Source of the DNA: an uncultured Pseudomonadota bacterium
GTDB lineage: Bacteria; Pseudomonadota; Gammaproteobacteria; Steroidobacterales; Steroidobacteraceae
DNA: 64,000 nucleotides
Direction of reading: 5' to 3'
Assembly (NCBI GenBank): GCA_963726085.1
Contig: CAVSAR010000011.1
Coordinates: 74,298 to 138,297 of the forward strand
Below the pieces are notes generated by a model. The model was not told the DNA's origin. It saw nothing but the letters and a program-made list of their open reading frames with translations, and did no database searches. A program made the position numbers and the translations under genes. Of this stretch, positions 25,401 through 29,213 are shown piece by piece; the stretch's first letter is position 1; every line of letters begins with the position of its first letter.

Positions 25401-27398
25401 CTACTTGGTACTGCCGGCAGACAGGCGCACCCCGATGTAGGCCGTCGTGCCGGGGGTCTGGTTGCCAAGAACTTCCTGGTAGTTGGCGTCGAACAGGTTT
25501 TCCACCCGCCCCAGCACTTCAAACCGGGGCGTGACTTTGTAGCTGGCAACCAGACGAACCAGGGTGTAAGCCGGCATATTGGTCTTCAACACCACGTAGT
25601 TGGGCAGGCCATACTGTCGGTAGTCGTTGTCGTAGTGTTCACCGTTGTACGTTACCCCCATGGTCAGTCGCACCTTCGCCCCCGGGTGCCAGGTGCCATC
25701 AAGGGCCGCCTGATTCTTGGGGCGACTGACTTCCACAGTCGGGGGGTTGCCTTCCATGGCGCGCAGGTAAGTGTACGAACCCACGACGTCGAAGTCGGCT
25801 GTCGGGGATAGGCGCGCGTACAACTCCATCCCTTCACGCGCGCTCTCGCCGGTGTCGTTGCAGCTCGACGGGTAGCAGGAAACTATCTCATCGTGCAGCG
25901 CCGAATTGAAGTACGTGAGATCAACCAGCGCACGACCATCGGCAAACTTCTGCTCGACACCCAGATCCCATCCCTTGGCGCTTTCGGGCTTGAGGTCCGG
26001 ATTGCCGACGAAGGTTCCAGGGTCGAATCCGAACTGTTCATAGAAGCTTGGGTTGGTCACGCCTTTGCCATAGCTGGCGTGCAGCCGGGTACCGGTGGCC
26101 TTGACTACCCAGGACGCTGCCAGCGAATACGTATCGGCATTGTCGAATTTGTCATTGTCATCGTAGCGATAGGACCCGGAGAGATACAGCTGCCCGGCAA
26201 TCTGCAGCTGGTCCTCCACGCCCACACCGACCAGCTCCCTGGTCTGGGCCTCCCGCTGCGTTGGCGAGAACGGATGCGTGTTCTGGAACGACTCCTTCTT
26301 GCTTTCGGCAAACCCGGTCAATGTGTTGCCGAGGCTCGCGGAGCCGGATTTAACCGACGACTGCAGCCCGTATTTCACGCGATAGGCCTGGTCGCCGAAC
26401 TCGTCCCCGGGAATGCCGTCCCTGCCTTCAGCGTGATTGTGGGTGTAATTCGCGTATGCCGTGGTCAACCACTTGTCATCCAGAAGGGACAAGGTGCCCG
26501 ATCCGGCCAGGTTGTATGATTGTGTCGAGGTCTGGCTGGCATCGTCGTAGGTCTCGCCCTGTCGCCCCGCAATGAATGAGAAGTCGAAGCCATCGGTCTG
26601 TGCCCTGGAATCCACGTAACGCGCAAAGCCATCGAATCTCAGATTGGGCGTGACCTTCACCCCTGAACTCACATAGCCGGTGACGTTCCTGTACCCCTCT
26701 TTGTCGCCGGTGACGCCGGGCGGGCCGTTGATGGCACCCAATGCGGAAATGTCAAAGCCATCGGTGTCGATAAACCCAGCCCCGCCGCCGAAGTAGTAGT
26801 CCCCATTGCCGAACCCGCCGCCGCCCAGCAGCGTGGTCGTGTTGAACGAACCGTATTCACCCGAGGCGTCGTAATACCCGCCGTTGGTGTCCTTCGGCGT
26901 CAGGATATTGATGACTCCCGCCAGTGCATTGGAGCCGTAGAGACCACTTTGCGGACCGCGCAGCACCTCGATGCGATCTATGTTCACCGCCAGCAGTGTT
27001 GAAAGATCTGTCTCGCCCTGACCAGCGTCCGACACATCCACACCATTGAACAGCACCAGCGTGTGATTGCCCTCGGCGCCACGCGTGCGGACCTGTGTCA
27101 GGCCGCCGTAGGAGCCGGTGCGGGTGACGGCCAGTCCCGGCACCTGCCGCAGTACATCAGATACGTAGTTATAGCCGCCGTCGTCGATCTGCTGGCCTGG
27201 CACCACCGTCAGGGAATTGCCAATCTTCTCGTACTCCGTGGGAATCGTCGTCGCCGTGACCACTATCTGGCCCAATGCGGATTGCGCTTCGACGATTGGC
27301 GCCTGCGCGAAGGCGGCACCTGCACAGCCCAGGATCAGGCACCCCAGGACCAGCCGGAATGCCGACAAAGCACCGGCGCTTGAACGGCGGACGGACAT
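25401..27398 (-). CDS. btuB: TonB-dependent receptor, probably the cobalamin receptor BtuB.
   Basis: Start MSVRRSSAGALSAFRLVLGCLILGCAGAAFAQA (cat 27396-27398) gives a signal peptide. A TonB box-like QIVVTATT is present, and the protein ends in a C-terminal Phe-containing barrel. It lies directly downstream of a cobalamin riboswitch. Confidence 0.8.
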   Translation of the reverse strand: MSVRRSSAGALSAFRLVLGCLILGCAGAAFAQAPIVEAQSALGQIVVTATTIPTEYEKIGNSLTVVPGQQIDDGGYNYVSDVLRQVPGLAVTRTGSYGGLTQVRTRGAEGNHTLVLFNGVDVSDAGQGETDLSTLLAVNIDRIEVLRGPQSGLYGSNALAGVINILTPKDTNGGYYDASGEYGSFNTTTLLGGGGFGNGDYYFGGGAGFIDTDGFDISALGAINGPPGVTGDKEGYRNVTGYVSSGVKVTPNLRFDGFARYVDSRAQTDGFDFSFIAGRQGETYDDASQTSTQSYNLAGSGTLSLLDDKWLTTAYANYTHNHAEGRDGIPGDEFGDQAYRVKYGLQSSVKSGSASLGNTLTGFAESKKESFQNTHPFSPTQREAQTRELVGVGVEDQLQIAGQLYLSGSYRYDDNDKFDNADTYSLAASWVVKATGTRLHASYGKGVTNPSFYEQFGFDPGTFVGNPDLKPESAKGWDLGVEQKFADGRALVDLTYFNSALHDEIVSCYPSSCNDTGESAREGMELYARLSPTADFDVVGSYTYLRAMEGNPPTVEVSRPKNQAALDGTWHPGAKVRLTMGVTYNGEHYDNDYRQYGLPNYVVLKTNMPAYTLVRLVASYKVTPRFEVLGRVENLFDANYQEVLGNQTPGTTAYIGVRLSAGSTK

Positions 27399-27727
27399 GG
27401 CATCGGACTTGACTATTTTGTTGCGCTCGACAGGTCCAGCTTCGCCATCGCGCCTTGTCATGGCCACCGCGCCCTGCTCGGCCGGTGACTTGAGCCGAAA
27501 TTCTGATGTCCTGTGACCACCCTGATTTGGCGCGGCGGCGCTCTCGATTTGCATTTTTTTTACTACCAGCTCCGAACAGGGGCTGACGTAGGCTGGATGC
27601 AAGGACAGCAGACGCGGAGGGCAAGCCCACCACGTGCCGGCCGCTCCTCCCACGAGAGCCCGACAAACTTCTCGCCCCAGGGACAGGAGCCCCTGAAGTG
27701 GCCGCGGCAGGTCTTCGGACTCTCGGG

Positions 27728-27910
27728 TGGGCCGGCTGACGCCGGTTTGCCTACTGGGCGCACTTCCCAGGAGCTTCACTAGCTCCCAGTGTTTTCTCGC
27801 TGTTCGTTCCCGATTACCGCTGCGGGACAGTTCCGGATTACTTCGCAAGAAGTCACCGGATTCCCTATTAAGCTGGCCATGCACGTTCTGCATGGCCCGG
27901 CACCGCTAAC
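27728..27910 (-). ncRNA. Cobalamin (AdoCbl) riboswitch.
   Basis: The minus-strand sequence GGTGCCGGGCCATGCAGAACGTGCATGGCCAGCTTAATAGGGAATCCGGTGA...AATCCGGAACTGTCCCGCAGCGGTAATCGGGAAC...CACTGGGAGC...CTCCTGGGAAGTG...AAACCGGCGTCAGCCGGCC matches the conserved core of the E. coli btuB leader (AAUAGGGAAUCCAGUG...GCGCAGCGGUAAGG...GAAGACCUGCCGGCC) and the B12 box. It is 5' of the TonB-dependent receptor gene. Confidence 0.8.
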
Positions 27911-28001
27911 GCCCTCAAGATATTGTGGTCGTTCGTTCGAGTCAACGGGAATCTGGCGACCAGCTTGGCGCGCGCCCGCGAGTAACCGTTCAGCGGTCCG
28001 G

Positions 28002-29213
28002 TCAGCTCCAGATGCGGACAAACAAAAAGAATGCGCCCACGCCTGCAAGACCGGCAGCTGCCACATCAGCCGCAAGCGTACGCAACGCTGCCAATTTTCT
28101 TCGCTGCAGCAGCGCTATCGCGACAAGGGCTGCGCCGAAAATCAGTGCCTGGGCCAACACAGCGCCGATGTCGAATCCAGCCTGCATTCGCACGGCCGCG
28201 GGAAGCGAGAAGTGCGCTCCCGGCAGCATTGAAGAGAGCAGGAAGCCGTCGAGGAACCCGAACGCGACTGCGAGCGCCACCCAGACGACATCCCGACGAT
28301 CGTACCAGTGCGATAGCACCAGGAAGCCGCCCGAGAATGCCGCCGCTCCCATCAGGAACAGCGCCGTCAGCACGGCTCCCTGTAACGTCGCTCCCAGCGC
28401 AACCAGCAGTAAAAGGCCGCTCCAAGACATTACCAGGGCCCTGTTGTGCTGGAGCGCCTGACGCCGTGCCATCGTCAGGCCGAGAATCGCCACCAGCAGG
28501 CCCAGGAACGCCTCGACGAAGTTGATGCGTGGCAGCACCAATCCACCGGAGGACAGGGCCAATGACGACAGGTAGCCCAATAGCAGCGCCGCGATCACTA
28601 TGCCGGCATCGCGCCTCCGGCGAACGAGCATTGCCGCACCCACGAGGAAGCCAATTTGCACCGCACTGCGCAGCACATGCATGCCGCCGAGACCTACATA
28701 TTTCGACAACCGGGCCGGCGGTGGCAGTCCAAGTGCTGCTACCGGGATTTGCCGGTCCGAGGAGGTAAATATCTGGTCGACCGTTTGCCCCTGCCGCTGG
28801 ATGTGCGCGAAATTGACATGGCCGGGAACGCGATCGAACAACACCTCATCGCGCAATACCATGGCGCCGGCTACCGGGCACTGAAAAAAGATCTCGAATC
28901 CGTATTGGTCCGATCCCACTTCCAGCGGATCAACCTTGCCCAGATCGTATCCCTGATCAATGGCGGGGCAATCCATGGCACCAGAATTCACCGCCGCGTG
29001 CTGAAGCACATAGTCGCCCAGTTCTCGTACGGACAAGGTCGGCAGGTCGGTGCCGACCAGGCGTTCGGCCTCGCTGGCTGGAAGCAGGAACTGCAAGGTC
29101 ACCAGGCGCCCGGACAGCGTCCAGGTCGAATAGCTGGTGCTAGTGCCGGTGGCGTGGACACTGGGCGACAGCAACATGAACAGGCACAGTCCTGGCAACG
29201 CCAGCGGTTTCAT
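28002..29213 (-). CDS. HupE/UreJ family protein (putative Ni/Co transporter with an N-terminal periplasmic domain).
   Basis: 403 aa. Signal peptide MKPLALPGLCLFMLLSPSVHA, then an ~170 aa soluble domain, then about 6 TM helices rich in Gly/Ala/Leu. This resembles the HupE_UreJ_2 architecture. It is a recognition call. Confidence 0.45.
   Translation of the reverse strand: MKPLALPGLCLFMLLSPSVHATGTSTSYSTWTLSGRLVTLQFLLPASEAERLVGTDLPTLSVRELGDYVLQHAAVNSGAMDCPAIDQGYDLGKVDPLEVGSDQYGFEIFFQCPVAGAMVLRDEVLFDRVPGHVNFAHIQRQGQTVDQIFTSSDRQIPVAALGLPPPARLSKYVGLGGMHVLRSAVQIGFLVGAAMLVRRRRDAGIVIAALLLGYLSSLALSSGGLVLPRINFVEAFLGLLVAILGLTMARRQALQHNRALVMSWSGLLLLVALGATLQGAVLTALFLMGAAAFSGGFLVLSHWYDRRDVVWVALAVAFGFLDGFLLSSMLPGAHFSLPAAVRMQAGFDIGAVLAQALIFGAALVAIALLQRRKLAALRTLAADVAAAGLAGVGAFFLFVRIWS

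Follow-up and report, generated by a model that had tools for sequence, protein, structure and literature searches.

The locus described here raises two questions, namely why the leader between a cobalamin riboswitch and a TonB-dependent receptor gene is so long, and at which of its three in-frame ATG codons (27554, 27461 and 27398) the receptor begins. Positions are those of the window, that is, the whole stretch of 64,000 nucleotides that was analysed, and the features of the riboswitch, leader and receptor all lie on its minus strand. An earlier reading made from the letters of the window (the sequence-only reading) had flagged the leader and the start, pointing to additional in-frame Met codons at 27554 and 27461; both codons are present and the flag was justified. 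Our analyses indicate that the whole leader, comprising the aptamer, the platform, ATG 27554 and about 50 nrdA codons, was probably taken from the gene of a B12-independent class I ribonucleotide reductase (RNR) and fused in frame to the receptor gene, whose expression it would control.

Analysis of the whole window with cmscan yielded a single Rfam match above the gathering threshold, RF00174 (Cobalamin) at 27922..27689 on the minus strand, with a score of 85.6 bits against a gathering threshold of 31.5 and an E-value of 1.1e-19; repeated on an 801-nt local region, the match had an E-value of 1.4e-21. The alignment spans model positions 1-189 of 189 and is untruncated, so that the match represents a full-length aptamer of 234 nt (27689..27922). 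The cmscan alignment and the sequence contain the B12 box, AGUCCGAAGACCUGCC (27706..27721), and the core motifs GGGAA..CCGGUG, GCCACUG and AGACCUGCC, and the aptamer is on the sense strand in the 5' leader of the BtuB-like receptor gene. The sequence-only reading had proposed a cobalamin riboswitch on the minus strand and a search with RF00174 as the way to verify it; the significant minus-strand match bears the proposal out, and the motifs it had quoted are inside the match. The span that it had given, 27728-27910, covers the inner aptamer and misses the B12 box and the 3' strand of P1, which reaches about 27696. An almost position-for-position agreement with the E. coli btuB leader was not recovered, as the aptamer had no match in 5,426 E. 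coli genomes (blastn, word 11, E up to 10); what the aptamer resembles is the consensus of the RF00174 family and not the E. coli btuB sequence. Several P1 pairs of the window aptamer are non-canonical in the cmscan alignment.

RNA folds showed a hairpin, CUUCAGGGGC-UCCU-GUCCCUGGGG (27675..27698), immediately after the 3' strand of P1; the relatives' leaders have a hairpin of different sequence at the equivalent position, and it is possibly a P13-like element. Immediately 5' of the aptamer a consensus scan identified a sigma-70-like promoter candidate, TTGACT-17 nt-TATCTT (27917..27945), which is a pattern match only, one site being seen against 0.1 expected in shuffles. No intrinsic terminator was found on the minus strand between 27000 and 28400, and a search of the leader for any further RNA family gave only Rfam noise (MIR1514, 17 bits; Six3os1, 14 bits). 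The upstream gene on the same strand (28002-29213) codes for a membrane protein of 403 aa in which a HupE/UreJ_2 domain (29.4 bits) was recognised; this family includes Ni/Co transporters. This gene ends 80 nt before the aptamer and is thus outside the control of this riboswitch, while its position next to a B12-regulated receptor gene is maybe no coincidence.

The receptor gene (25401..27398) codes for 665 aa from ATG 27398, or 717 aa from ATG 27554, and the product carries Plug (PF07715, 84.8 bits) and barrel (PF00593, 130.6 bits) domains. Among NCBIfam models, the product scored best against those for BtuB, TIGR01779 (TonB-B12, 236.3 bits) and NF007926 (220.3 bits). Since both scores are below the equivalog cutoffs (599.7 and 836, respectively), the receptor is named BtuB-like, as in the sequence-only reading, and not BtuB. 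The BtuB architecture is present, with the Plug and 22-strand barrel accompanied by a signal peptide and a TonB box that were identified by inspection of the translation and alignment. The signal peptide, MSVRRSSAGALSAFRLVLGCLILGCAGAAFA (27306..27398), is expected to be cleaved before QAP, and the N-termini of 11 homologues align at a signal peptide starting at Met 27398 (MSVRRSS...AAFA, followed by QAP after the cleavage site). A TonB-box-like sequence, IVVTAT, occurs at the mature N-terminus (27249..27266) and corresponds to a conserved column block in the homologue alignment. A total of 1154 receptor homologues were found, the best having identities of 79, 72 and 67% and lengths of 640-680 aa, in line with the earlier placement of the signal peptide at ATG 27398. 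Exact receptor peptides had no match in a scan of genomes, the protein of the window itself is absent from the records, and its relatives are Hyphomonadaceae-like. An open frame of 830 aa in the receptor frame extends from 27893 to 25401, running through the aptamer and leader into the receptor; its 5' part is a GC-rich artefact, because the frame crosses the aptamer. A gene caller could nevertheless readily choose 27893 or 27554 and annotate an over-long receptor.

Of 40 genomic homologues, which are mostly from Hyphomonadaceae, 27 have an RF00174 element of their own, which supports a putative B12-related role of the receptor family. Cobalamin transport by the receptor would find indirect support in these riboswitches and in the ExbB-DUF2149-CobN-like neighbours of the closer homologues. 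Downstream of these closer homologues (54-68% identity) lies a conserved cluster of a small ORF, ExbB/MotA, DUF2149 and a very large CobN/Mg-chelatase-like protein (L002:3177-6177, L004:4983-7983, L005:4971-7971), and their receptor genes have no riboswitch in front. The receptor gene of the window is without such a cluster and stands alone, convergent with an RND pump. At L002:534-745 (minus strand) a cobalamin riboswitch of 90.8 bits occupies the interval between the receptor gene and its divergent neighbour; as it is directed away from the receptor, it would control the divergent, truncated ORF of 135 aa.

Measured from the true end of the aptamer, ATG 27398 is 290 nt away, less than the roughly 330 nt estimated before, and ATG 27554 is 134 nt away. 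Elsewhere the distance from aptamer to start is 65 nt (L003), 122 nt (L001) or about 105-125 nt (Hyphomonadaceae-type leaders). Alignment of the leaders revealed a conserved platform block, GGGCUCUCGUGGGAGGAGC (27643..27661), common to the window, L087, L001 and metagenomic leaders; in the first three it has the form GGGCUCUCGUGG(G/A)AGGAGC and occurs about 50 nt after P1. ATG 27554 is 88 nt after the block, while the corresponding distance in related leaders is 79-120 nt in 21 of 24 and 144-201 nt in the other 3; its 134 nt from the aptamer compare with 120-150 nt in the leaders of RNR genes. It aligns with the ATGs of L087 (MQLE), of L152, L131 and L097 (MQVE) and of L141 (MQIE). Spacing and alignment thus mark ATG 27554 (27552..27554, MQIE...) as the platform ATG and the ancestral nrdA start. 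The leader accordingly consists of a normal nrdA-type riboswitch and platform up to ATG 27554, followed by a 156-nt in-frame relic and then by the signal peptide, and it looks 150-200 nt too long because the relic is included. The unusual length noted from the sequence therefore holds for the 290 nt to ATG 27398; the platform itself, at 134 nt, is normal for its type and the rest is coding relic.

ATG 27554 has no Shine-Dalgarno sequence with proper spacing, being preceded by an A7 tract and by a GGAG about 18 nt upstream, and ATG 27398 is likewise without one. A repeat or mobile element as the source of the additional leader was ruled out, as no second copy occurs in the window or in 86 loci. 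An element of about 200 nt was observed at another locus (L044:1200-1420, JANOKS010000100.1), inside the signal-peptide coding region of a homologous, riboswitch-controlled receptor gene. It has long terminal inverted repeats, ccccgctcgtcccgacgaacgtcgggac ... gccccgacgttcgtcgggacgagcgggg, and widens the distance from aptamer to TonB box to 425 nt; it resembles a MITE insertion, by which the gene may have been inactivated or remodelled.

An exact-match scan of metagenome contigs with the block returned 65 loci, about 38 of which have a B12 box, with the same GAAGACCUGCC, 40-60 nt upstream of the block. All tested leaders with B12 box and block belong to RF00174, with scores of 84.7-101 bits and aptamers of 229-246 nt, and the window aptamer (234 nt, 85.6 bits) is within the length and score range of the RNR-associated aptamers. 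The genes behind the block leaders mostly code for proteins of 770-840 aa with the N-terminus M..FRLT.P.AAR..M.VTKR.G..EPVDVNKIVRAV. These proteins are class I RNR alpha subunits, with Ribonuc_red_lgC matches of 626-646 bits, an ATP-cone, and a TIGR02506 (NrdE_NrdA) score of 718 bits against a cutoff of 341. Nucleotide comparisons showed that the leader nearest to that of the window belongs to the receptor locus L087 (83% over 252 nt) and that the next nearest are six RNR leaders (L149, L094, L097, L131, L100 and L141; 74-81% over 186-309 nt), while the comparison with 27 Hyphomonadaceae-type receptor riboswitches gave zero matches at E<1e-3. The 19-nt block was also observed in front of metE, a 376-aa MetE-like gene, other TonB-dependent receptor genes and a gene for a PepSY-like membrane protein (L092:1270-1450, L136, L105/L145, L111/L139/L146, L115/L140 and L109). 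Since it precedes these other gene types too, the block is regarded as a general module of this riboswitch subtype and not as specific to nrdA.

The relic, MQIESAAAPNQGGHRTSEFRLKSPAEQGAVAMTRRDGEAGPVERNKIVKSDA (27399..27554), corresponds to the first approximately 50 codons of a class I RNR alpha-subunit gene and is 156 nt or 52 codons long, in frame with the receptor. In blastp it matched about a dozen proteins, with 35-49% identity to the RNR N-termini of L152, L096, L118, L129, L127, L094 and L141, and the multiple alignment gave 38-49% identity. A profile constructed from 21 RNR N-termini matched the relic only, out of 1110 six-frame ORFs of the window, with an E-value of 2.9e-5, the next-best ORF having an E-value of 0.72. 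The likeness is colinear, from MQ[IV]E[ST] at the homologous ATG through FRL..P to the ATP-cone motif (T/K)R.G...PV..NKIV; the start of the ATP-cone, MTRRDGEAGPVERNKIV, is at 27461-27411. Met 27461 belongs to the interior of the relic and lines up with the Met that is conserved in the RNR motif AM(A)VTKR. The additional in-frame Mets would thereby be explained, Met 27554 as the start of the donor gene and Met 27461 as a Met of the relic. Neither Pfam ATP-cone (PF03477), nor the RNR catalytic domains, nor NCBIfam matches the 52-residue relic. The body of the RNR is absent after it, which makes it a fragment and not an RNR.

The junction between relic and receptor would lie between about 27405 and 27385; its exact position is uncertain because a weak DAMSV/DAMRV match follows an 11-codon gap. 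By itself, the lack of stops in the relic is not significant, as 45% of 52-codon windows in this GC-rich DNA are without stops, and the open frame was rejected as evidence of translation; an in-frame junction has a prior of one in three. The relic was searched for a Rho loading site and carries no C-rich, G-poor rut-like stretch. The long relic was found in the window only, a second genome with the same long relic not being found.

Two receptor loci from independent assemblies, L087 (a Logan run) and L001 (an NCBI MAG), provide the closest comparison. L087 is a syntenic orthologue, with a receptor 79% identical and the same RND pump convergent downstream (92.7% identity). Its annotated start, ATG CAA CTT GAG (MQLE), aligns with ATG CAA ATC GAG (MQIE) of the window and is directly followed by the signal peptide. 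The receptor of L001 is 72% identical, the locus is non-syntenic, and it too starts at the platform ATG. Since the relic is contiguous with the leader in the RNR genes, the long form of the window is considered the older state, and L087 would have lost codons 5 to about 50 through deletion. The L001 leader shares 84.8% identity with the RNR leader of L129 (over 336 nt) but only 70% with the window leader; being nearer to an RNR leader than to that of the window, it indicates that the receptor leaders do not form one clade. This distribution would reflect either repeated capture of an nrdA leader or homogenisation by gene conversion with a resident nrdA leader. Among the receptor relatives, the next closest (L004-L010) are without a riboswitch and more distant ones carry the Hyphomonadaceae-type element, so the clade of the window appears to have re-acquired B12 control from nrdA.

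Because no terminator was found, the riboswitch would be expected to act on translation initiation. In E. coli, the btuB riboswitch governs the initiation of translation and sets off Rho-dependent termination (PMC11162775), and translational repression by the thiM riboswitch likewise leads to Rho-dependent termination (PMC5499598). In the minimum free energy fold of the full leader, 27661-27649 is paired with 27731-27717, while RNAalifold on 11 leaders paired the block with CCUGCCGCRGCC, which comprises the 3' half of the B12 box and the 3' strand of P1. Either pairing of block and aptamer would exclude the folded aptamer, and the block is consequently a candidate switching strand. When the aptamer was excluded from the fold, the block paired with GAGAGCGCC at 27545-27537 (+9 to +17 of ATG 27554) and UUGCAU (27603-27598) paired with AUGCAA; at L094, L100, L141 and L149 the GGGCUCUC of the block faces a Shine-Dalgarno sequence of the form GGGAGCCC. 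These predicted pairings fit, if weakly, a classic OFF switch in which initiation would be open in the free state and closed by the block in the bound state. The block-aptamer pairs are invariant and thus give no covariation support, the 3-bp Shine-Dalgarno sequestor being the only one to show any (RNAalifold, 11 leaders), and a crude accessibility test on 25 leaders with the block blocked gave no consistent change of the initiation region (8 up, 9 down).

The most likely mode of action that we infer is B12-dependent translational repression at ATG 27554, with readthrough into the receptor precursor. Without B12, the block would pair with the 3' part of the aptamer (the B12-box region and the 3' strand of P1) and leave the initiation region of ATG 27554 open, so that ribosomes would translate the relic and continue into the signal peptide and receptor. 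In the presence of adenosylcobalamin, the aptamer would close and release the block, and the released block together with the local helix UUGCAU/AUGCAA would shut the initiation region and stop translation; Rho or decay would then probably silence the message that is no longer translated, as in E. coli btuB and thiM. Through signal peptidase the mature receptor would be identical whichever start is used, and ATG 27398 may also serve as an independent internal start. ATG 27554 would then be the start for which the platform was built, its homologue being used in L087.

ATG 27554 is favoured by the geometry of the platform, by the fact that L087 and L001 start at the homologous ATG and by the junction being in frame, while the absence of a well-spaced Shine-Dalgarno sequence, the hydrophilic pre-sequence and the non-significant open frame count against it. 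These last points bear on an alternative in which 27398 is the sole start of the receptor and the 290 nt form one long untranslated platform, where the nrdA-derived stretch may be a spacer RNA and regulation would act via long-range RNA structure, Rho or decay. Such an arrangement agrees with the signal peptide, which begins at 27398, and with homologues of 640-680 aa. Moreover, long N-terminal extensions ahead of signal peptides are rare, and it is unusual for a Sec signal peptide to be preceded by a hydrophilic extension of 52 residues, which could impair export. However, ATG 27398 has no Shine-Dalgarno sequence either, the conserved platform geometry stops at 27554, L087 and L001 start at the platform ATG and the relic is in frame with the receptor. 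Furthermore, no conserved structure extends from the aptamer to 27398, the stretch between being unique to the window. An exclusive start at 27398 is thus possible, though we consider it doubtful.

The remaining explanations dispense with regulation, with the relic or with the locus itself. A riboswitch that is a decaying, non-regulating leftover, with the receptor expressed constitutively from 27398, is improbable: the window aptamer scores 85.6 bits against 102-128 bits in riboswitches of the receptor family and has several non-canonical P1 pairs, but its score and length are inside the RNR-type range (84.7-101 bits, 229-246 nt), and both the window and L087 preserve the block and the geometry of the platform. 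It is still less probable that the likeness of 27554-27399 to RNR arose by chance in GC-rich sequence and that the leader subtype is merely shared by many genes. The RNR profile matches this segment alone in the window (E 2.9e-5 against 0.72 for the next), the match is colinear from the homologous ATG, MQ[IV]E[ST], through the ATP-cone motif, and the nearest relatives of the leader are specifically RNR leaders; these results outweigh the facts that block-type platforms also precede metE, metE-like and other TonB-receptor genes, that Pfam ATP-cone does not match the relic and that its identity to RNR N-termini is just 38-49%. An assembly chimera, in which a riboswitch-nrdA 5' fragment was misjoined to the receptor gene, deserves hardly any credence, since the same kind of leader and the same receptor clade are joined in the two independent assemblies L087 and L001 and L087 is syntenic downstream. 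Acquisition of the leader from an nrdA gene is accordingly retained as the preferred reading.

Comparison with known systems indicated that the riboswitch family and the kind of target are known, while the capture of a leader with a coding relic is unusual. Like the E. coli and Salmonella btuB leader, that of the window gives a full-length RF00174 match with a B12 box and precedes a gene for a TonB-dependent, B12-type receptor, and neither has an intrinsic terminator, so that control of translation initiation with secondary effects of Rho or decay is expected (PMC11162775). On the other hand, the window leader has no primary-sequence similarity to any E. coli genome, its aptamer has extra insertions (234 nt), its platform carries the alphaproteobacterial-type block, and 52 foreign codons part the controlled ATG from the signal peptide. 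The nrdAB(S) operons are given as known B12 riboswitch targets in PMC12528414, citing its references 22 and 23, and regulation of Streptomyces nrdABS by a cobalamin riboswitch is described there as established (its reference 22). The window shares with these riboswitches the aptamer and platform (74-81% identity), the block, the distance from block to ATG and the first codons (MQIE), whereas it keeps only about 50 RNR codons, the catalytic body being gone and the receptor following in frame. The two targets obey the same regulatory logic, as B12 is expected to repress a B12-independent RNR just as it would a B12 importer.

The arrangement offers a snapshot of riboswitch recruitment in which aptamer, platform, start and about 50 donor codons moved together, L087 being a trimmed later state. 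A search of the literature on leader capture or on gene remnants behind riboswitches returned nothing specific. More speculatively, and with little confidence, leaders may repeatedly move within the regulon together with a piece of donor coding sequence as a 'riboswitch cassette'; the nrdA leader would here have been captured or converted at least twice, and the relic of the window would be translated, so that B12 would control a precursor with a 52-residue RNR pre-sequence. If so, the cassette would include the first codons needed by the platform. The locus is also a natural test of whether platforms that act on translation depend on the early codons of their original gene, a dependence suggested by the modular Rho elements of thiM (PMC5499598). 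For annotation it carries a warning: the platform start (27554) is not the signal-peptide Met (27398), and gene callers and signal-peptide tools will disagree.

The Hyphomonadaceae-type leaders (L011-L045) belong to the same Rfam family and precede homologous receptor genes (41-49% identity). They differ from the window in their aptamers (193-213 nt, 102-128 bits) and platforms (about 105-125 nt), and have no detectable DNA similarity to the window leader. They possess a Shine-Dalgarno-sequestering hairpin of their own, GGUCUCC...GGAGACGUC (GGUCUCCAAC..GGAGACGUC), just before the ATG, with translational control. Their platform (e.g. L029:1283-1400) was observed to be near-invariant, with the form GACGGUCCGGGGAUGGGCCG...GGCGACGUC...GACGGUCUCCAACAUUGUGGAGACGUC..AUG and repeated GACGUC/GACGG boxes, and these platforms are a good set for a covariation model of the cobalamin expression platform.
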